From: a virus
Lineage: Duplodnaviria; Caudoviricetes
Direction: 5' to 3' (one strand)
IMG/VR virus record: IMGVR_UViG_3300034351_000046
Coordinates: 1-55,125 of that record
DNA: 55,125 nucleotides
Positions 2,423-54,309 of the stretch are shown here, piece by piece. Position numbers and translations under genes: made by a program. Position 1 is the first letter of the stretch, and every line of letters starts with the position of its first letter. A model generated the notes under the pieces. It saw nothing but the letters and a program-made list of their open reading frames with translations, was not told the DNA's origin and did no database searches.

Positions 2423-3628
2423 CTAGTCGTTTTCCTGCCGGTCCATGGCTTCCAGATCTGGGTCCTGAGTGTTGAAACGCTCGGGCGTCATGGCCCAGTA
2501 AGCTTCGCACTGCTCGGGCGTCACAAGCGCATGATAATGGTTCATGACGATGTCCGGGCTGTTGCCCATCTCAGCGGCAGTCCGGGCCAGATCGTGAGAC
2601 CGAGCCAGGAAGTAACTCCCGAAGGAATGGCGCATGATATCGGTAGGCCACGCATCGAACCCCAGGTGATCCCGGAGCGGCAGCATTTTCTTCTGCTTGC
2701 CCTTGGCGAATTCGGCGCCGATTTCGCAACCAAGCTTCCGGGCCAGCCGCACCCAGGCCAGGGCCGTGGGTTCCATGTGAATCATCCGCGCACGGCGCGT
2801 CTTGGTCTGCCACTTCTTGAGGGCAATCAAGCCCTTGTCGAGGTCGATGTCCTGCCAGCGTAACCGGTCGATTTCCTCCGGGCGGCAACCACAGAAAAGG
2901 CCGATGGTCACATAGCCCAGCTGGTGTAGTTGGTCCGGTGTCTCGAGGATGAACCGCAGGGCCTTGTCGACCTGCTCAGGGCTCATGATCGTGGCGCCTT
3001 CGTCCTTGACGATTTTACGCTTCGGGATTGAGTCACTGCTGCACGCCTGGACGGGCGCCCAGCCGCGCTTGTAACACAATCCGAAAAAGCTCCGGGCCGA
3101 GTCGCGATTATTGTTCCAGCTGGTGTCGTTGTCGTATCGATCCAGATACTCCAAAACATCCTCGGTTGTGATCTTGGCCACGGGCATATTCTCCCGGCCC
3201 TTGGCAAAGCGCCGGATCCAGCGGCCTGCATTGGCGCAGTGCATCTCAGAGTTACCCTTCCGGCGCAGGTGCGCTTCCCATTCGATCCCGGCCTTGGCCA
3301 AGGTCATGGACTCGGGCGCCAGCGCACCGTTGCCATTGGCCGAGGACTTTCCGGCCAGCCATTCGTCGATGACCTGGGTCATGGTGTAGTTGGGCGCGGC
3401 CTTGGTCAACCGGTCCAGGGCAACCATCATCTCCGCACGCTTGCTGCTCGAAAGGGCCAGCCACGCCTCACCGGCTCGGCGGCTCATCTCCTGCTTTTCG
3501 CGTGCGGCTTCCTCGGCCTCCTGGCGCGTCTTGTAAAAGCGCCGGATCCGAGTGCCGCCCGTGGGCGTGTAATCGAGGACAAAGCGCGTGCATCCGCGCT
3601 CGGTTTGTTTTCGGATATTCAGTTTCAT
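2423..3628 (-). CDS. int: Tyrosine recombinase / phage integrase
   Basis: Catalytic residues GCRPEE (R), KT (K), DIMRHS (variant HxxRH box), MGNS and NHY (Y); N-terminal arm-binding-like beta region (RIRRFYKTRQEA). Confidence 0.93.
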   Translation of the reverse strand: MKLNIRKQTERGCTRFVLDYTPTGGTRIRRFYKTRQEAEEAAREKQEMSRRAGEAWLALSSSKRAEMMVALDRLTKAAPNYTMTQVIDEWLAGKSSANGNGALAPESMTLAKAGIEWEAHLRRKGNSEMHCANAGRWIRRFAKGRENMPVAKITTEDVLEYLDRYDNDTSWNNNRDSARSFFGLCYKRGWAPVQACSSDSIPKRKIVKDEGATIMSPEQVDKALRFILETPDQLHQLGYVTIGLFCGCRPEEIDRLRWQDIDLDKGLIALKKWQTKTRRARMIHMEPTALAWVRLARKLGCEIGAEFAKGKQKKMLPLRDHLGFDAWPTDIMRHSFGSYFLARSHDLARTAAEMGNSPDIVMNHYHALVTPEQCEAYWAMTPERFNTQDPDLEAMDRQEND

Positions 3629-3683
3629 TGCAGTGTCTTTCATTTGGTTTTTTGTTTCGCTCGGTTGTGGAGACCGAGGTGTC

Positions 3684-3712
3684 AAGTTACGGACAAATGC
3701 GGACAAAGTCAA
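3684..3712 (-). promoter_or_regulatory. Sigma70-like int promoter overlapping the arm repeats
   Basis: TTGACT-17nt-TAACTT on the minus strand; the spacer consists of the two TGTCCG repeats. Confidence 0.5.
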
Positions 3713-3916
3713 CGAATATCTCTGACAATCTTTTCGACATCTCCGCGCATCTGCCCGGAGTCTGGATTATGTGCGTTTTCCTGGGGAATTGCCATGTTTT
3801 CCCTGATTTCAGGGCCTTTTGAATGAGGCGCCAGATAGCGTGCCTGGCACCTGATAAAAGTGCCGTTTTCCTTGACTTTTCCCCAGGATGCGCCAATGCG
3901 GACAGTTTACGGACAG
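3687..3916. other. Putative attP: arm-type direct repeats flanking an inverted-repeat core
   Basis: CGGACA pairs at 3690/3700 and 3899/3910; imperfect inverted repeat AGGCGCCAG-9nt-CTGGCACCT at 3826-3852; immediately upstream of int. Confidence 0.6.
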
Positions 3917-3946
3917 AAATCTCTGGCAGATAAGTGGTTAAAGGGC

Positions 3947-3974
3947 TTGCAATACGCAAGCGGTTGCTTACCTT
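3947..3974 (+). promoter_or_regulatory. Promoter with palindromic operator (copy 1)
   Basis: TTGCAA-TA-CGCAAGCGGTTGCT-TACCTT; same layout as 5335-5362. Confidence 0.5.
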
Positions 3975-4388
3975 GGTTTGATGGTCACGGGATGCCGCCA
4001 GCAGTGTCCGGCATTGCCCCCTTCCTGGGGGCCCGTGGCCGTTTACTTTGGCGCCTGCTGGGCTTCCCCAATCCCTGGCCTACCCAGCATGGCGCCGGGG
4101 GCCCCCGGACATGACGCCAACCAGTGGCCGCGCCGGGAGCCCCCTTCCTGCCTGGGGCTCGGCCCGGATCGTTGTCACTCACCGTCCGGGTTTGGCATTC
4201 CCCTGCCGAGTGGCCGAGTGACCGGCACGGCAGGCGCCGAAGGGCCCCAGGCAGGAGGGGGGCGGCAGCCTGGGGGGCGGCTTGACCGGGAGGGCAAGGA
4301 TGCAATTCTGACCGAGGCCGAGCTCGGGAGGCAGAACCACTAGAGGGAGGCAAATCGACTCGGCCCCCGCCACCCCATTTTGTTTACC

Positions 4389-5873: not shown

Positions 5874-5901
5874 CCGCCAAACTCAAAACCACAGTCGCAC
5901 C

Positions 5902-6162
5902 ATGAGAGAAGCAAAGACCTACATTGGAGATGCTGTTTACGGGGAGGATCTGGGAAGCCAGGTTAGACTCTCCACTCAGCGTTCGTTCGACACGCATTGG
6001 ATGGTTCTGGGGAATGCCGAGATCTGGTATTTCCTTCGGTGGCTTCGGTTCCGGGGCTACCTCCCGGATGAGGCCCTGGAACAGTTGAAGGCCTACACCC
6101 CGAGCGGCCCCGAGGAGCTCAAAGAAGACGATCTAGGAGGGCTGGACCATGCCTCGGACTAA
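5902..6162 (+). CDS. Hypothetical phage protein (YIGDAVY motif)
   Basis: 86 aa; YxGDxVY motif seen in small phage proteins; AAAACCACAG leader. Confidence 0.75.
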   Translation: MREAKTYIGDAVYGEDLGSQVRLSTQRSFDTHWMVLGNAEIWYFLRWLRFRGYLPDEALEQLKAYTPSGPEELKEDDLGGLDHASD

Positions 6163-44103: not shown

Positions 44104-44634
44104 ATGCCAGTTTTCACTGATTCTGATTCCAATTATGAGATCGTGCCCGAAGGGGATTACATCCTCTGCGTGTTCGAGTTTTCAACCGACATCTCATCCG
44201 GCCAGAAAACAGCCGGCGCCGAGCGGTTCAACATCGTGTTCACCGTGGAAGGAACCAATGCCAAGGTGCGCGAAACCTTGATCGATGCAGAGCAGACACT
44301 CTGGAAAATCGATCAATTCGTCAAAGCCGCCGGCATCCGCTCCCTTCAAAAGGGTGATGCGTTTCACTTCGAGCAGGACCGCGCCGAAGAATTAAACGTG
44401 CCGTGGATCAACCCCATGGGCTTGCGCGTGCATGCTCGGGTGGTCGAGGAGACCTACACCTCGAGGAGGTCAGGTAAGCAAGTCACCAAAAATGCCGTGG
44501 CCCTCTACTATACCGATAAGGAACCGCTCAAGCCGAATCCCGAGCTCCGCAACAAACCCACCAGCAAACCCAAACAGGAGGAATCCCAAGAGTCCACCAG
44601 TCCTTGGGATGCCAAGCCCAAGACACCGTTCTGA
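44104..44634 (+). CDS. DUF669-like ssDNA-binding protein
   Basis: VPEGDY N-terminus, terminal PF, and position in the recombination cluster. Confidence 0.7.
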   Translation: MPVFTDSDSNYEIVPEGDYILCVFEFSTDISSGQKTAGAERFNIVFTVEGTNAKVRETLIDAEQTLWKIDQFVKAAGIRSLQKGDAFHFEQDRAEELNVPWINPMGLRVHARVVEETYTSRRSGKQVTKNAVALYYTDKEPLKPNPELRNKPTSKPKQEESQESTSPWDAKPKTPF

Positions 44635-44651
44635 TTCATACCACAGTTCGC

Positions 44652-46172
44652 ATGAAACCCAGGCCCTACCAAACAGAGGCCGTCCTTAAGATTCGACACG
44701 GTTTTAAGGAGTTCAAAAAGCAACTGGCAGTCCTCCCGACTGGCAGTGGCAAAACCATTCTCTTCTCCTGGCTTGCTGAGGAAATCCAGCCGCTCAAGAC
44801 ATTGATTCTTTGTCATCGGCAGGAGCTCCTCACGCAGGCCGTGGAGAAGTTGAGGATGGCCACCGGGATCCGCGCCGAGTTGGAAAAAGCGGAGTGGACT
44901 GCCTCCGCTGAAGCCCCGGTAGTGGTGGCCAGTGTTCAGAGCATGATCCGAAGGCTGGACCGGTGGCCATCTGATCACTTTCACCTGGTGGTAGCCGATG
45001 AGGCCCACCATGCCGTCTCAGAATCCTGGCAGAAGGTTCTGAACCATTTTGACAGCTACGTTTTGGGATGCACTGCCACGCCTGATCGAGCGGACCAACG
45101 CACGCTCGGTGAGTACTTCGAGAACGTAGCTGTCGACATTTCATTGGTACGCCTAATTCGAGAGCAATACCTCTCCAACATCGTCATCAAAAGCGTGCCC
45201 CTTAAAATCGACCTGACCAAGGTCCACCTCCAGGGTGGGGACTTCGATGAGGTGGAGCTTGGCCACCTCCTGGAGCCCTACCTGGTCACGATTGCCCAGG
45301 CCATCCGAGACCACGCAAGTTTCCGCAAGGTCCTCGCCTTCCTTCCACTGATCGATACCAGCCGAAAGTTTGTCGAGGCCTGCCGCCAGGTGGGACTCAC
45401 AGCCAAGCACGTAGACGGTAAATCCCCTGACCGCGCAGAGATCCTCCAGCAGTTCGACAACAACCAATTTGACGTTCTGTCAAACGCGATGTTGCTTGTT
45501 GAGGGCTACGATTCCCCCAGCATCGATTGCATCGTTGTCTTGCGCCCTACCAAGAGCCGGCCGCTTTTCGCGCAGATGGTGGGACGGGGCACTCGGGTCC
45601 ATCCGGCCAAGGAAAACCTGCTTCTGCTGGACTTTCTTTGGCTCCATGAACGGCATCGGATTGTCCACCCTGCCGATCTGATGGCCCATGACGCCGAGGA
45701 GGCTGATATCGTTACCGAGCTCTCCCAGAAGCTCTCTGCCCAGGGCGCCTCGGAGGAACAGCTGGACCTGCTCACCCTGGCCGCTAGCGCCACTGAAGAG
45801 CGCGAACGTAAGTTGCGCGAACGCCTGGCCGAGCTCGCCAGCCGCAAGGCCAAATTCATCAGCCCTGAGCAATTCTGCTTGGAGCATGGCGAGACCGAAA
45901 CGGCCTTCTATGAACCCACCATGAAGTGGGAAGGCAAGCCGATCACACGCAAGCAAATGAAGTATTTGGAACGAACCAAAATCGATCCAGACCTCATTAA
46001 GGGGCGCGGCCACGCCTCCAAGCTCCTGGACGTTATGTTCAAACACAAAGACCTGGAGCTCGCCTCCCAAAAGCAACGGTGGTCCATGCAGCAACATGGC
46101 CACCCAGATCCATGGATGGCAACCAAAGCTGAAGCCAGAAGATTCTTCGCCCAACTCAACCGAAAGAAATGA
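44652..46172 (+). CDS. SF2 DEAH-box helicase
   Basis: RPYQ, LPTGSGKT, DEAHH, TAT, NAMLLVEGYD and QMVGRG motifs. Confidence 0.95.
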   Translation: MKPRPYQTEAVLKIRHGFKEFKKQLAVLPTGSGKTILFSWLAEEIQPLKTLILCHRQELLTQAVEKLRMATGIRAELEKAEWTASAEAPVVVASVQSMIRRLDRWPSDHFHLVVADEAHHAVSESWQKVLNHFDSYVLGCTATPDRADQRTLGEYFENVAVDISLVRLIREQYLSNIVIKSVPLKIDLTKVHLQGGDFDEVELGHLLEPYLVTIAQAIRDHASFRKVLAFLPLIDTSRKFVEACRQVGLTAKHVDGKSPDRAEILQQFDNNQFDVLSNAMLLVEGYDSPSIDCIVVLRPTKSRPLFAQMVGRGTRVHPAKENLLLLDFLWLHERHRIVHPADLMAHDAEEADIVTELSQKLSAQGASEEQLDLLTLAASATEERERKLRERLAELASRKAKFISPEQFCLEHGETETAFYEPTMKWEGKPITRKQMKYLERTKIDPDLIKGRGHASKLLDVMFKHKDLELASQKQRWSMQQHGHPDPWMATKAEARRFFAQLNRKK

Positions 46173-47647: not shown

Positions 47648-47883
47648 GAATTTTCCAGGAACGCAAGGTGGCCTATGCGGTGGAGGGCCCCTACGAAGAT
47701 CAAATGCGACTTACTACCGGAGATCGAAAAACCATGGATGAGGCACTCGAAGCCGCCAGGGAATTCGAGAAAGAAATGCCGATTCAGAAATTACGGCTTG
47801 TAAAGACAGTGACGATTGTCTATACAGAAATCCTTCCGTATCCACAACGGCACAGCAGGTGCCCTAAATGCGCGACAAAATGA
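47644..47883 (+). CDS. Hypothetical protein
   Basis: 79 aa; ATGA overlaps at both ends. Confidence 0.7.
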   Translation: MRIFQERKVAYAVEGPYEDQMRLTTGDRKTMDEALEAAREFEKEMPIQKLRLVKTVTIVYTEILPYPQRHSRCPKCATK

Positions 47884-48353
47884 GCGATTGGAAATATTTG
47901 AACAGATGCCGGATCCCGCCAGGGAAATCCAAGATGTATGGATCCCGCCCCTCGGACGGGTTCAATGGCGCCTTTCACATCACCATCAATGGGCTGGAGC
48001 TCCTGGCCCTGGCCTCCGATGGGATGGGGTGGCAGCATGTCTCCGTTTCAATTGCTCGCCAGCCGACACACACACCCAGCTGGCACATAATGTGCGCGTG
48101 CAAAAACCTTTTCTGGGAGGACACCGACACGGTCATGCAGCTGCACCCTCCCAAGGCTCTTTACGTAAACCATCACCCAGGATGCCTGCATCTGTGGAAA
48201 CCCACGATGGATGGCGTCATCATCCCGCTGCCGCATCCCGCCATGCTGGGATGGGAAATGGAAGATGGGAAATCGGCCCTGGAGGTCCCAGGCCTGCCCC
48301 AAGAGGTTCAGGAGTGGATCGAGAAGCATTACGGGAAAAGGGCCCCCGAATGA
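47880..48353 (+). CDS. Conserved phage protein (WxHVSVS...HPxCLHLW family)
   Basis: GWQHVSVS, PSW..MC..K.LFW, QLHP and YVNHHPGCLHLW motifs. Confidence 0.85.
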   Translation: MSDWKYLNRCRIPPGKSKMYGSRPSDGFNGAFHITINGLELLALASDGMGWQHVSVSIARQPTHTPSWHIMCACKNLFWEDTDTVMQLHPPKALYVNHHPGCLHLWKPTMDGVIIPLPHPAMLGWEMEDGKSALEVPGLPQEVQEWIEKHYGKRAPE

Positions 48354-48503
48354 GAGACGGGTGACCGGAAGGACACTACTACTTCCAATCACCCGTCATT
48401 CTCAAAACCACAGTTCGCGACTGTGGTTCTAACGATTTTTTGACTTTCAGCGCAAGCTGAAAATCGAGAAACCAAAAAACCAAAAAAGCAGAAAGACCAC
48501 AGT

Positions 48504-49250
48504 ATGAAGAGATCAGAGGCTAAAGAGCCTATTGGAAATCCCGTCCTCCCAGGCGGGAAGGAAAAGAAGGAACGCATCATCATCAAGCCGCCCAACTTCG
48601 GGCTGGCTCAATTCACGATCGAGGGGCTCACGCAATTGTGCGTCCATCGATTCTCACAGAAGGTCCTCGAAAGCCTGCGCGGAGAACCCGATGCAGAAAC
48701 CGGGGAGAAAGCACCATCCAAAGCCAAAAAGAAGCCCAAGAAAAAGTACTCCGACGAAGTGCTTTATCATGACGCTCGCTACATCAGCCCGGAGGGCTGG
48801 GACGGAATCCAGGCCAGTGCCTTCCGTAACTGCATGATCTCGGCATGTCGCGTGGGCGGCTTTGAGATGACCAAAGCAAAGCTGAGCCTGTTCTGTGTTC
48901 AGGACGGGTTCGATGCCACTCAACCTCAATTCGGCATCGTCCGAATCTACGGTGAACCGCGCATGGCGATTGACATGGCCAGGGTCTCCCGAGGGGATCC
49001 CTATCCTGTTGTGCGTCCGGTTTACATGCCCTGGCACGCGAAAGTGAAAATCCGATGGGACGCAGATCAATTCCATCTGGATGACGTTGCCAACCTCCTC
49101 TACCGAGCCGGCGTGCAGGTTGGTGTCGGTGAGGGACGCTGGGACAGCAAAAAGTCTGCTGGCCTTGGTTGGGGGCAATTCGCAATCACGGGCATTGAAA
49201 GACTCACTCTCGAAATCCCACAACTACCACCGATTCCACCCATTAAATGA
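48504..49250 (+). CDS. RAMP/Cas7-like RNA-binding protein; putative effector of the adjacent array
   Basis: RRM-like layout: first strand FTIEGLTQLCVH, IQASAFRNCM (cf. the RAMP IPxSxxKG helix), and a C-terminal Gly-rich loop GVQVGVGEGR...GLGWGQF. Confidence 0.7.
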   Translation: MKRSEAKEPIGNPVLPGGKEKKERIIIKPPNFGLAQFTIEGLTQLCVHRFSQKVLESLRGEPDAETGEKAPSKAKKKPKKKYSDEVLYHDARYISPEGWDGIQASAFRNCMISACRVGGFEMTKAKLSLFCVQDGFDATQPQFGIVRIYGEPRMAIDMARVSRGDPYPVVRPVYMPWHAKVKIRWDADQFHLDDVANLLYRAGVQVGVGEGRWDSKKSAGLGWGQFAITGIERLTLEIPQLPPIPPIK

Positions 49251-49804
49251 GCACCAAAACCAAAGTCGAATTCGGCTATGCGCCGATGCCCAACTCGAAG
49301 CTGAACAAAACTCAGGTTCAGGTTGTGGCCTCCGAATTCAAACGCCTGGAAGAAAAACATCGGGTTCTCAAGCCGGCCACGATTGTCGAGGCCGCTCGCC
49401 CCCAAGGGTCCAGGCTACACCCATTCTTCACCTGGGATGATCGGGCAGCCGCCGAGCAATACCGGCTGATCGAAGCGCAGATGCTTTCCCGATCTGTCCG
49501 CATATTCCAGGTGGGAATCCCACTGGCTGAACAGCCGGTTGTTCGCGCTTGGGTCCATGTGACCGCACATAGCGAGGAGACCGAGTTTGAAGGCCCAGGC
49601 TACATCAGTGTGAATCGTGTTTTGGACGACACTCGCTACCGGGAGCAGATGCTCCAGGAAGCCAGAGATGACATCCGCATTTTTCAGCGCAAGTACGAGG
49701 ACCTCCTCCTTGTGACGGGGGCCATGGAAAGCGTTGAGAAAGTCAAAAGCAAGCTAGCTCCAAAGCCGCGCAGGCGCGGTGGGGCGCGTCACAAAGCGAC
49801 CTAG
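49247..49804 (+). CDS. Conserved partner protein of the RAMP-like gene
   Basis: ATGA-coupled; LKPATIVEAAR..GSRLHPFFTWDDRAAAEQYRL..A motif; function unknown. Confidence 0.75.
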   Translation: MSTKTKVEFGYAPMPNSKLNKTQVQVVASEFKRLEEKHRVLKPATIVEAARPQGSRLHPFFTWDDRAAAEQYRLIEAQMLSRSVRIFQVGIPLAEQPVVRAWVHVTAHSEETEFEGPGYISVNRVLDDTRYREQMLQEARDDIRIFQRKYEDLLLVTGAMESVEKVKSKLAPKPRRRGGARHKAT

Positions 49805-49828
49805 CAAGCAAAGCCCTGTAGTGGCGGC

Positions 49829-50743
49829 GCAGGCGAGTCATGGCCGAGAGTGATTGGTGGAGAGTGTCGATGCCAGGTTAGACATGGCAATGCTGGCACG
49901 ATGCCGCTCCTCCGAGCAAGTCGAGTTCAAACCGAGCGCGATGCAGTATGTCAAGACATGCCATTGCAGGCTCGACCAGCCCCGTCTTGATGCGGCTGGG
50001 AAGGGCAAAGCACAACAAGACATGTCCTGGTTTGGTGCGACCGAGCCAGGCAAGGTCAGGCGTGTCGCGACAAGGCAAAGCTGGCGCGACAATGCGAGTC
50101 CAGCCTGAGATGGGTGCGACGATGCCTGACATGGCAAAGCAATGCAGGCAAGGCGCGATCTGGCGAGCCAGCGCACGTAATGGCGGGGCGCGATGCGTCC
50201 CTGCGCGACATGGCAAAGCTGGCGAGTCGAGCCTCGTTGAGGCGAAGCTAAGCTGAGTTGGGCAATGCAGGCAAAGCGCGAAATGGTCTGGCCTTTTACG
50301 ACGAGGCGGGTCTAAGCGATCCCAGGCTGGCCAAGCGCGAATTGTCAGAACCGAGCGAGCTATGGATTGCCAAAGCAATGCAGGCGGTGAGTGGGGAGCA
50401 TTGACTGGCGAGACTAGTCAAGCCACGACAGTGCAGGCAAGTCGAGTTCGTGCCTAGCCCAGCGTTGCGTGACATGGCTGAGAAGAGCAACGCAGGCAAG
50501 TCGAGGCGGGACACGTACTGACTCGGCACGGCATGACACAGCATGGCAGGCATGGGATGGCGAGACTAGTTGTAGTTTAGCCCGGCCTGGTCCGTCTGAG
50601 CAGGCATGGAATTGCTGGTCAAGTTGTAGCAAGGCGGAACCTGGATTGTCTGGGTGAAGCCAAGCAGGCATGCCCACGCAAAGCAGGGCCAAGTCTAGTG
50701 AAGCCTGACAGTGCAGGTTTGGCTGGGTTTGGCTTGTCGGTAA
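49829..50743 (+). ncRNA. Pentamer-periodic guide-like array (NN + triplet units, GC(A/T)GGC delimiters)
   Basis: 15 delimiters; 12 of 14 intervals equal 5n+9 nt; no credible ORF; the NN strings decode to phage protein motifs. Confidence 0.85.
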
Positions 50744-50747
50744 ACCC

Positions 50748-50786
50748 GAGTGGCCGGTAGGTTGATTCCTGCCGGCCGCTCACTTT
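50748..50786 (+). terminator. 14-bp stem-loop closing the array
   Basis: GAGTGGCCGGTAGG-TTGATT-CCTGCCGGCCGCTC (two G-U pairs), followed by ACTTT. Confidence 0.65.
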
Positions 50787-50801
50787 CAATGGAGTGAACT
50801 T

Positions 50802-52913
50802 ATGGAATTGATCGAACAAGCCGCACGTTATCTTCAGTCGATCCCGCCGGCCATCTCTGGCCAGGGTGGACATTCTCAAACCCTCAACGCCGCCCGAGCC
50901 CTGGTCTGGGGCTTCAACCTTCCCGAGGCTCAAGCCATGGAGCTCCTGAGTCAGTGGAACCAAGGGTGCCAGCCACCCTGGAGCCAGAGGGAGCTCGAGC
51001 ACAAAATCAAGGAGGCCAACAGCAAGGAATTTGGTAAACCGCGCGGCTATCTCCTCTCCAAGAACCAACGCTATCTTTCGCGCAACGCCGCTCGACCAGG
51101 CGTCGAGTCCAAACCCGAGGTGGCTGCCAAACAATACGATCTGAGCACCGCCCAGGAAATCGAACTGCCCAAGGGCAAGCGCGACGGGTTTTTCCAGTTG
51201 CTGGAGGCCTGCTTTAAACCTGGTGAAGGCGTGCGCGTGATGGGCGGCATGGATGAGGAGGGGCATGTGCGGTGTGATCCCCACGGGGGCGTGGTCCTTT
51301 CCAGGGAGGAGTGGATCAGTAAGCTCGAACAGAAGGGCAGCATCAACGCGCTCTACTATCGCCTGGGAGGTCCTCCGCTGGGGGTTTACCTGGGCATCAA
51401 CCCGATGAAAATCGGGGGCGGCAACAAGGATGCCGATGTCACGGCCTATCGCCACTGCCTGCTGGAGTTTGACAAGATCTCCATTCGCGAGCAGTGGGCC
51501 CTGATCGTCCAGTCCAACATCCCCTGCGCGGCCGTCATCTACTCGGGCAACAAATCGATCCACGCCTGGGTGAAGGTCGACGCGCCAGACCGCAAGACCT
51601 ACGACGAACGGGTCAGCGCCATTTACGATCACTTCCGGGAATATCAACCAGATGTCAAAAACAAGAACCCCTCCCGGTTCTCCCGGTGCCCGGATGCCAA
51701 GCGCGATGATACGGTGCAGTATCTCCTGGGCCTGAACCTGGGCGCCGAGTCCTACACCGAGTGGAGCAAGCAACTCCTGGTGGAGGGAATCGGCATCACC
51801 TATTCGGCCAAGGAGGTGCGCGAATACGATCCCACCGAGGACGGCATGACCGTGGCCGGGGATCAATGGCTTCGCAAGGGCGGGTCCTGCATCCTGGTGG
51901 GGCCCTCGGGCGTGGGCAAGTCCAGTCTGGCCTGCCAGATTGCCATGTGCTGGGCCCTGGGCCGGCCCTGCTTTGGAGTGACGCCGGTCAAGCCGCTCAA
52001 GATCCTCTTCCTTCAAGCCGAGAATGACCTGGCCGATTTGCACTCGATGAACATCGGGATTTACCAGGGCCTGGGAATACTCGATCAACCGGAGGCCTTG
52101 GAGATGATCGACCGCAACCTGGTCTACAACCACAACGTGGCCGACACGGGCCACTCCTTCATCGTCGCGTTGCAGAAGCTGGTGGACTACCACGAACCGG
52201 ACCTGGTGATTGTCGATCCCCTGCTCTCATTCATTGGCGATGACGCCAGCCGGCAGGAGATCGTGGGCCGGTTCTTCCGCAACTGGCTCAACCCGATCCT
52301 GCACAATTCCAACGTGGCCTTCATGGGCGTGCATCACACCGGCAAGCCGCCTCAGCAGCAGGAAGGCAAGGGCGGCAAAAAGCCCCCGCGTCGATCCCTG
52401 GCCGAGTGGTCCTACCAGATGATGGGCAGCAGTGAGTTGACCAACTGGGCGCGTGCGGTGGTCCTGCTCAATCAGCTTCCCGAGGGCGACTTCGAGTTGA
52501 TCTTCTCCAAGCGCGGCAAGCGTGCCCAGGCCACGCATCCCAATGGGAGCCCCACGCAAATCGTCCGATTGCGGCATAGTCCTCTGGCAATTTTCTGGGC
52601 CCAGGAGGATCCCCCGGAGGAACCGGTCACCGCTTCGGAATCCGAGCCCCAGGCGGCACCCAACATGACAGCTGGACAAATGGTCCAGACAGTGGCTAGC
52701 TCCAATCTTTATGAGTTCACCAATTCGATCCCCAAAGAGGGCATAAGCAATGCCAGACTGCGCGAGATGATAGTGGACTACGCCGCCAACACTCTGGGGA
52801 TCGACCTGGGCGAACCGAGATCCGGGCGTGTCACGCGCACGCTGGAAGCCCTAGTCCGCAACCACAAACTGAGCCGCAAAGGAAAACTCTACATCAAGGG
52901 GCACGATGCATAA
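50802..52913 (+). CDS. Primase-helicase (AEP-like plus AAA_25/RepA-like helicase)
   Basis: PPAISGQGG N-domain; LLEFD, SGNKSIHAW and NPSRFSR primase motifs; GPSGVGKS, IVDP and VHH helicase motifs. Confidence 0.9.
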   Translation: MELIEQAARYLQSIPPAISGQGGHSQTLNAARALVWGFNLPEAQAMELLSQWNQGCQPPWSQRELEHKIKEANSKEFGKPRGYLLSKNQRYLSRNAARPGVESKPEVAAKQYDLSTAQEIELPKGKRDGFFQLLEACFKPGEGVRVMGGMDEEGHVRCDPHGGVVLSREEWISKLEQKGSINALYYRLGGPPLGVYLGINPMKIGGGNKDADVTAYRHCLLEFDKISIREQWALIVQSNIPCAAVIYSGNKSIHAWVKVDAPDRKTYDERVSAIYDHFREYQPDVKNKNPSRFSRCPDAKRDDTVQYLLGLNLGAESYTEWSKQLLVEGIGITYSAKEVREYDPTEDGMTVAGDQWLRKGGSCILVGPSGVGKSSLACQIAMCWALGRPCFGVTPVKPLKILFLQAENDLADLHSMNIGIYQGLGILDQPEALEMIDRNLVYNHNVADTGHSFIVALQKLVDYHEPDLVIVDPLLSFIGDDASRQEIVGRFFRNWLNPILHNSNVAFMGVHHTGKPPQQQEGKGGKKPPRRSLAEWSYQMMGSSELTNWARAVVLLNQLPEGDFELIFSKRGKRAQATHPNGSPTQIVRLRHSPLAIFWAQEDPPEEPVTASESEPQAAPNMTAGQMVQTVASSNLYEFTNSIPKEGISNARLREMIVDYAANTLGIDLGEPRSGRVTRTLEALVRNHKLSRKGKLYIKGHDA

Positions 52914-53537: not shown

Positions 53538-53998
53538 GTCAATTCTACGATTCAACCCCTGACACCCAAGCCCACATCGCCCTGGTGCGAAAATTCATGC
53601 AGCGGCCCATCGTCAAGCTGATGCATCGAGCCGCCACCCATGACGCCTCCAAGCTGGAGAGCCCCGAAAAGGCGGCTTTCGACAAGCTGACCCCCCGGCT
53701 CAAGGGCCTCAAATACGGCTCGGAGGAATACCGCGCCAGCCTCCGGGAGATGAAGCCGGCCATCGATCACCATTACCAGGTCAACTCCCATCACCCGGAG
53801 CACTATCCCAACGGGATCAACGGCATGAGCCTTTTGGATCTCATGGAGATGTTGTGCGACTGGGGCGCGGCCCAGCAACGGCACGATCCTCCCGGCAACT
53901 TTGAAGCCAGTTTCAAGGTCAACGTGGAGCGGTTCAAGATCGGGCCCCAGCTGGAGTCGATCCTCCGCGCCACGGTCAAGGAGATGGGCTGGGAATGA
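53534..53998 (+). CDS. HD-like protein (DUF5662-type)
   Basis: HDASK, HHY..NSHHPEHY and EMLCDW motifs. Confidence 0.85.
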   Translation: MSQFYDSTPDTQAHIALVRKFMQRPIVKLMHRAATHDASKLESPEKAAFDKLTPRLKGLKYGSEEYRASLREMKPAIDHHYQVNSHHPEHYPNGINGMSLLDLMEMLCDWGAAQQRHDPPGNFEASFKVNVERFKIGPQLESILRATVKEMGWE

Positions 53999-54309
53999 CC
54001 ACAGAATCCAAACCCACCCTGATCAATGCCAGCGTGTTGGCTGAAGCCGTGACCCAATGGTTCATAAGACGGCGCGTGTATGAATGCCCAAGATGCTACG
54101 GCAAAGGTGTGCAGGGGGGTGGCCGTGGCCACTTCGGGGACTGCAACGGAGATGCGGGGGAGGCCTGGAAGCCTTGCTGGTGGCCGTGCCCCCGATGTCT
54201 TGGGTTTGGGTGGGTGGATCTGGTTTCAGAAATTGAATACAGGGAGTCCCTCGAGGGGGACGAGTTTTCTTCACCAAAATACAGCAGCAAGCGCAAGAGA
54301 GAAGGCTAG
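53995..54309 (+). CDS. DnaJ-type zinc-finger protein
   Basis: CPRCYGKG and CPRCLGFG. Confidence 0.7.
   Translation: MTTESKPTLINASVLAEAVTQWFIRRRVYECPRCYGKGVQGGGRGHFGDCNGDAGEAWKPCWWPCPRCLGFGWVDLVSEIEYRESLEGDEFSSPKYSSKRKREG

Follow-up and report, generated by a model that had tools for sequence, protein, structure and literature searches.

The 55,125-nt stretch of viral DNA analyzed here (the window, to which all positions refer unless a relative is named), a 98%-complete virus record, very probably holds a VIPR locus. A vipr gene and a vap candidate are followed by a staggered vrRNA array, and one block of that array would be a vrRNA fitting the DUF7694 gene of rival phages (Table 1). The window would thereby add an environmental phage with a large, tail-less VIPR array, its clade being distinct from the one that has been investigated in experiments.

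VIPR (Viral Interference Programmable Repeat), a relative of CRISPR in which two of every three DNA bases are read, was described in 2026 preprints (10.64898/2026.04.26.720920), and the account that follows is confined to the portions of those preprints available to us. VIPR units have the form GGYNN, in which the NN bases pair with the target and one target base, usually the wobble base, is skipped (10.64898/2026.04.26.720920; 10.64898/2026.10.15.759431). A vrRNA consists of 9–16 GGYNN units (10.64898/2026.04.26.720920). The RAMP protein Vipr takes up one unit per protomer, sequestering GGY while NN pair with double-stranded DNA (10.64898/2026.04.26.720920; 10.64898/2026.04.26.720927), and its binding silences transcription (10.64898/2026.04.26.720920). 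Natural targets were called at an NN match of at least 80%, and the available portion reports no self matches at that level (10.64898/2026.04.26.720920). As far as the same portions go, VIPR loci are recognized by a minimal RAMP protein (RRM core, G-rich loop and thumb), by the combination of vipr and vap, by their mostly viral setting, and by the absence of a CRISPR array or other cas genes.

Table 1. Positions of the predicted VIPR components and of the related features in the window.
Feature	Position	Strand	Remarks
Self copy of helicase motif, NAMLLVEGYDS	45483..45515	+	In helicase gene 44604-46172; 17/22
Resident DUF7694 gene	47880..48353	+	Pfam PF24746, E 1.4e-23
Self copy of target motif (IMCACKNLFWED) in resident DUF7694 gene	48087..48122	+	16/22; 17/24 with 12th unit
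vipr, predicted RAMP-family guide-binding protein, 248 aa	48504..49250	+	Fold, profile homology, array association
vap candidate, 185 aa	49247..49804	+	Overlaps vipr stop
Staggered vrRNA array	49805..50733	+	189 units; 14 segments of at least 7 pentamers; ~930 nt
Probable sister vrRNA, 11 NN units, helicase motif NAMLLTEGYD(Q/H)	50270..50328 (units 50273-50327)	+	
Probable vrRNA fitting DUF7694, 12 NN units AT AT TG AA GT AA GG CT TT TG GA CA	50603..50666	+	
Strong hairpin closing array	50750..50779	+	5′ of primase start at 50802

Anatomy of the Repeat Array

The array parses into 171 pentamers, 17 tetramers and one hexamer. Its unit consists of two near-random bases (NN, near background composition) followed by a GGY-like scaffold, the three positions of which are G (65%), G (64%) and a pyrimidine (92%), with only 30% of scaffolds being strict GGY. 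Tetrameric slip units (AGGC or TGGC) separate the segments, each shifting the register by −1, and occur every 9–14 units; the segments between them are 9–14 pentamers long, with one of 22. Because of these 4-nt slip units, the array has a period of 4.9 and its GC autocorrelation peaks at 54 nt, that is, 11 units minus 1. Spectral power reaches 11.0 at period 4.9 vs. at most 1.8 at other periods, the harmonic excepted, and the periodicity was found in no other part of the window: 22 sliding windows exceed the 99th percentile, and 17 of these fall in 49926-50726. The pentamer code is readable from raw sequence.

This layout resembles the staggered arrays described in a supplementary figure legend (fig. 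S18) of the first preprint, in which contiguous vrRNAs overlap by 1 nt, so that the end of one is the start of the next (10.64898/2026.04.26.720920); insofar as that legend describes them, the likeness lies in the −1 slip every 9–14 units and in the 54-nt periodicity. An AGGC slip unit at 50602 and another at 50666 exactly bracket the block that matches DUF7694, in which only 3 of 13 scaffolds have the strict GGY form. Across loci, strict GGY makes up 85–98% of scaffolds in three cleaner relatives, 59% at locus L216 and 25% at locus L236. Cleaner arrays of the same clade consist of clean GGC/GGT-NN units with a recurring GGCaaGGCaGGC boundary motif, which is the slip seen in the window. The array in the window provides natural data on the extent to which the GGY scaffold can be relaxed.

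In the window, the strongly periodic tract (49805-50760) has stops in all frames and is non-coding. Scans with Rfam and for tRNAs found no family or tRNA in the tract, no CRISPR-type direct repeats were detected in 49700-50850, and no promoter-like site was called upstream of the array. No primary-sequence homology of the tract was found in phages, nor any to the periodic tract of the primase relative L002 described below. Contigs from four DNA sequencing runs over 48504-50801 gave identical fragments with no differences among them and were thus uninformative as to guide turnover.

A G+C-rich hairpin of 12–13 bp, which has no T-run, follows the array and precedes the primase start. The RNA fold of 50700-50801 has an energy of −49.9 kcal/mol (z −4.87), and none of 200 shuffles folded as well; a consensus scan called no terminator in the hairpin region. 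A structured 3′ tail of the kind found in phiSUSP1, the phage with a characterized type II VIPR, is absent here, and the repeat tracts abut without tails. By eye, L002 carries a comparable inverted repeat at the position matching the hairpin in the window.

The vipr Gene and the vap Candidate

The 248-aa ORF is predicted, from its structural model and from profile comparison, to be a Vipr with a Cas7-like RAMP fold, homologous to the characterized Vipr. Its AlphaFold2 model (mean pLDDT 80.3) gave 63 Foldseek matches to the PDB at E ≤ 0.001, the best with E 4e-6, and chains from the type III (Csm/Cmr) and type VII CRISPR effector complexes ranked at the top, among them S. epidermidis Csm3 (5yjd_B). 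When its family alignment (A2) was compared with the Vipr candidate of phiSUSP1 using hhalign, the two aligned over 168 columns (probability 82%, E 1e-5), and both the G-loop and the β1 His were among the aligned positions. The phiSUSP1 VIPR locus was found in KT454805, an accession confirmed by its record. There, two minus-strand genes are flanked by GGT-NN tracts, and the 195-aa gene encodes a His17 and a GVGDWR loop that fit the residues named in the available part of the cryo-EM preprint (10.64898/2026.04.26.720927).

The vipr gene of the window is intact and keeps the invariant residues of its family. A period-5 tract lies within 3 kb of the vipr homolog in 73 of 80 IMG/VR loci. Pfam holds no family for the 248-aa ORF, and sequence searches of the PDB with the 248- and 185-aa proteins returned nothing useful. 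No cas domains were found among the 15 ORFs scanned, in which the lone RAMP protein was the only one with a CRISPR-like fold.

The vap candidate and vipr overlap by 4 nt, and a homolog of the 185-aa ORF stands directly downstream of the vipr homolog in 52 of 80 loci. The protein corresponds to phrog_15946 (function unknown). Its confident structural model (pLDDT 92.6) returned nothing from Foldseek at E ≤ 0.001, and VIA-align gave weak matches for residues ~9–130 (Z 4.3–6.2), mostly to winged-helix nucleic-acid-binding domains.

A Guide Code With a One-Base Skip

Guides were defined as eleven-unit windows of the array and scored at base level (22 bases); 119 of the 904 offsets are in register with the scaffold. 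The target set comprised the related phages G002 and G003, the close metagenomic primase relatives L082, L084, L085 and L106, and the window after masking of its array. G001 (a near-duplicate of G003), L083 (gene layout and identities as in L082) and all more distant loci were left out. The primase relatives had been found in IMG/VR by an alignment-based scan; a single-protein scan found none.

Over all offsets, matches of at least 18/22 numbered 16, 41, 13 and 20 for skips of 0, 1, 2 and 3 bases, respectively, and for the in-register guides they numbered 3, 18, 0 and 1. Gap 1 is the only outlier against the relatives' DNA. When the NN order was permuted within the in-register guides (100 permutations), matches averaged 1.04, never numbered more than 3 and never scored above 19/22, compared with a real maximum of 21. 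In the phage's own genome, the in-register guides gave no match of at least 18/22 (maximum 17), in line with the lack of self matches reported in the preprint. Targets could be assigned to two of the 14 vrRNA-sized segments, all of them in frame, the skipped base being the wobble base; for the other 12 segments, the small set of relatives that was searched yielded nothing better than chance.

An earlier, sequence-only reading of this DNA had taken 11 dinucleotides from the pentamers at 50606-50660, proposed that they act through an NNx code, and offered as independent support a match to the resident DUF7694 gene. The match itself is as described: agreement with 48087-48119 extends to 8 of 11 dinucleotides (16 of 22 bases), on the sense strand and at codon positions 1–2, in frame with the gene. 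Its value as independent support did not survive a dinucleotide scan of the window with all ~900 tract offsets on both strands, in which gaps of 0, 1, 2 and 3 gave 2, 12, 9 and 5 matches of at least 8/11. Sixty shuffles of pentamer order gave 5.1–5.3 such matches per gap, and at least 12 at gap 1 in one of the 60, so that about five matches of this quality arise per shuffled scan and an 8/11 match stands at chance. Judged by the refuting condition that this reading had set for itself, its evidence would fail as offered. The code, in contrast, is borne out: it is the published VIPR rule, and it is the one that yields the 18 in-register matches in the relatives' DNA, vs. 3, 0 and 1 for the other skips.

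One out-of-register frame (49909/49914, spanning 49909-49965), shifted by one base relative to the scaffold, matches window positions 5901-5935 at 20/22 (9/11 dinucleotides). The site lies at the start of an ORF (5902-6162) but is not in codon phase, and, at dinucleotide level, a match as good arose in about 2 of 60 shuffles. Such a match is odd if in-register frames alone matter.

Targets in DUF7694 and Helicase Genes

Read at codon positions 1–2, the NN bases of the block spell the consensus DUF7694 motif, (I/M)MCKVK(D/E)LFWE. The block matches the DUF7694 genes of G002/L003 and L082 at 19/22, and when its NN order was permuted 1000 times, 19/22 or better was reached once. The sequence-only reading had also proposed that the block targets a conserved motif of close relatives and had suggested a pattern search of phage databases. 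The first proposal holds, with DUF7694 genes of other phages matched in frame at 19–21/22. In IMG/VR, the exact 22-base pattern has no match; a 19-base sub-pattern occurs in eight contigs, which score 19–21/22 over the block, in every one of them within a DUF7694 gene, in frame and at one and the same motif. Three of the eight reach 21/22, two with MMCKVKDLFWE and one with IMCKVKELFWE. As homologous sites picked out by the pattern, the eight indicate the breadth of the fit and do not count as independent support.

The resident DUF7694 gene, which ends ~150 nt upstream of vipr, departs from this consensus. Its likely start is at 47880, because homologs begin MSDW..., although the ORF is open from 47868. 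All mismatches of the self copy to the block fall in codons 77, 78 and 80 and are thus grouped in the middle of the footprint. Among 120 DUF7694 homologs, K at position 77, the residue decoded by unit 4 of the block, is the commonest in the family (33 of 120). Position 78 is V, again the decoded and commonest residue, in 88 and I in 30, with C78 found only in the window protein, and N80 occurs in four. The resident gene is better read as a spared self copy than as the target, its 73% match lying below the published threshold of 80%.

A sister vrRNA in the same array matches the helicase motif NAMLLTEGYDD of G003 and L084 at 21/22, and reaches 19/22 in L106; third codon positions vary between the G003 and L084 targets. 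The full 22-base pattern of the sister vrRNA occurs exactly in eight IMG/VR contigs, all of them in-frame NAMLLTEGYD(Q/H), and its 20-base pattern occurs in 90 contigs. In the 109 motifs that were recognizable among the 150 best family representatives, the sixth residue is T in 93 and V in none, and the phage's own helicase has V at this position. In both genes, DUF7694 and helicase, the own alleles therefore carry rare residues exactly at the codons that the guides mismatch. The two assignable guides would aim at conserved motifs of replication-module genes common to sibling phages, and the difference of the own alleles at the codons that are read would make this a concrete case of self/non-self discrimination by target recoding. 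The own alleles also carry TTG in place of a CTN leucine codon.

Comparison With Known Systems

The closest characterized system is the type II VIPR of phiSUSP1 (vipr, vap1 and four vrRNAs). Both loci have a RAMP Vipr, the two proteins being homologous at profile level, and in both a two-gene operon stands beside pentamer-repeat RNAs, as seen in KT454805. According to the available preprint text, they also have in common the rule of NN with a 1-nt skip at the wobble base, the aiming of guides at competing mobile elements, and a weaker fit of those guides to self. They differ in their scaffolds, which are clean GGT in phiSUSP1 and GGC-like and relaxed in the window, in the number of guides (4 vs. 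~14), and in the length of Vipr (195 vs. 248 aa). The vrRNAs of phiSUSP1 end in a structured, pseudoknotted tail of ~40 nt, insofar as the preprint portions describe it, whereas those of the window are tail-less and abut via a 4-nt slip unit. The accessory proteins are unrelated as judged by BLASTP, which found no similarity of the 185-aa protein to phiSUSP1 Vap1. Because its tracts lack tails and the 185-aa protein lacks BLASTP similarity to Vap1, the locus in the window is predicted to be a VIPR but not of type II.

The fold predicted for the Vipr of the window is that of Cas7, the backbone protein of Class 1 CRISPR systems (Csm3/Cmr4), and the available preprint portions describe a further likeness in filament assembly along the guide with periodic base flipping. 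CRISPR guides are read in 6-nt units with five read bases, in contrast to the 5-nt unit and two read bases of the window, which has no CRISPR repeats, spacers or other cas genes.

The trp leader RNA bound by TRAP contains 11 triplets with 2–3-nt spacers, and it resembles the array in its period of ~5 nt, its 11 units per block, and its alternation of a conserved triplet with variable bases. The difference is that the variable bases of the array carry information and that the predicted partner is a RAMP filament, not a ring of TRAP subunits. No TRAP homolog was found, the only hit being an Anti-TRAP zinc ribbon at 53995-54309, whose E of 0.0077 misses the cut-off. Other roles considered for the tract (TRAP-like ring-binding RNA, origin iterons, primase recognition sites, R-loop region, decayed microsatellite) were dropped, as the tract accompanies the RAMP gene and carries skip-1 target matches.

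Proposed Mechanism and Alternative Explanations

In the reading that we favor, which is modeled on the published systems, the array would be transcribed and processed into vrRNAs that assemble with Vipr into ribonucleoprotein filaments. One Vipr protomer would bind each 5-nt unit and hide its 3-nt scaffold, leaving the two variable bases to pair with double-stranded DNA such that every third target base is skipped, and the bound filament would silence transcription. Provided that it is active with its relaxed scaffolds, the block vrRNA would fit the DUF7694 gene of related, competing phages, with the phage's own copy spared because three codons differ, and the neighboring vrRNA would act likewise on the helicase motif. 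A further step, which we put forward tentatively and consider possible though somewhat doubtful, is that the array is coupled to two replication-module genes of the phage itself as a "weapon plus immunity" set, in which self has been recoded at residues that are otherwise nearly invariant (V78C in DUF7694; T to V in helicase motif V) and the consensus alleles of co-infecting relatives are silenced. If true, this would be kin discrimination of the toxin-antidote type, enforced at the codon level, and VIPR guides would shape the protein evolution of their carriers.

The locus might instead be a VIPR array in which the block vrRNA is decaying or inactive, its scaffolds having moved too far from GGY and its DUF7694 match being a fossil of past targeting. 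The scarcity of strict GGY in the block (3/13) and in the array as a whole (30% vs. 85–98% in the three cleaner relatives) speaks for this, as does the report, in the available preprint text, that perturbing GGY abolished silencing in phiSUSP1 (10.64898/2026.04.26.720920). Neutral decay, however, should erode NN and scaffold alike, and the NN bases still match their targets at 19–21/22 while the scaffold pyrimidine is kept at 92%. Relaxation to an equal degree is seen at other loci of the clade (L236 and L216), and the same preprint text reports relaxed consensus forms (NNNGG, YNNNG and NNNNG) and frequent internal degeneracy (10.64898/2026.04.26.720920). With vipr intact and the invariant residues of its family present, we regard a decayed block as unlikely.

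Autoregulation, in which partial (73%) pairing would let the block vrRNA control the resident DUF7694 gene and no conflict between phages would be involved, fits the short distance from that gene to vipr and the in-frame match on its sense strand, but it leaves unexplained why relatives and the family consensus match better (19–21/22) than self does (16/22). The three mismatched units lie together in mid-footprint, the pattern recurs for the helicase vrRNA, and the match is below the published 80% threshold, at which the available preprint text reports no self matches (10.64898/2026.04.26.720920). Taken with these points, autoregulation seems very improbable. Hardly credible at all is the idea that the matches are numerology and that the tract serves as a replication origin or set of iterons beside the primase, forms R-loops, or acts as an RNA sponge for a TRAP-like ring protein. 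The own-genome match at 8/11 is indeed at chance level, the tract does adjoin the primase-helicase gene, and its 11-unit blocks recall the 11 triplets bound by TRAP. Against this stand the specificity for skip 1, the permutation null and the exact 22/22 helicase matches; moreover, it is the RAMP gene that the tract accompanies (73 of 80 vipr loci), not the primase, whose relatives L003, L082-L085 and L106 are without it.

Relatives and Neighboring Loci

In L003, L082, L084 and L085, the slot between DUF7694 and primase that the VIPR locus occupies in the window contains unrelated coding genes (ORFs of 124–363 aa), and the slot seems to be a variable site for accessory genes. By eye, a conserved stretch (ctcaaaaccacagttcg...) is found before vipr in the window (48400-48440) and before primase in L003 (900-935), and would thus mark the boundary of the inserted module.

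L002 and L004, two records that are 98.8% identical and whose primase is 61% identical to that of the window, carry a different periodic tract of 1.35 kb (2600-3970) directly upstream of primase. It is built of NNNGC units (222 pentamers and 42 hexamers, e.g., GATGGC) with a period of ~5.17 and an autocorrelation peak at 31 nt, and it shows no sequence similarity to the array in the window. Eight guide/stride models applied to the L004 array gave no target outlier. A 443-aa ORF spans the tract in both records, and the 199-aa gene upstream of it (1859-2458) has a weak G-loop-like match to phiSUSP1 Vipr (E 0.031).

Cyanophage Cy-LDV1 and Gordonia phages, for which hosts are named, carry the same Vipr clade and open routes to bench tests. 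In Cyanophage Cy-LDV1 (L358, BK059895.1), GGC-NN arrays at 3086-3309 and 3892-4064 flank the gene after the vipr homolog (g34). In Gordonia phage UmaThurman (L359), the annotated CDS gp40 falls on a period-5 tract at 3081-3400 and may be an array misannotated as a gene.
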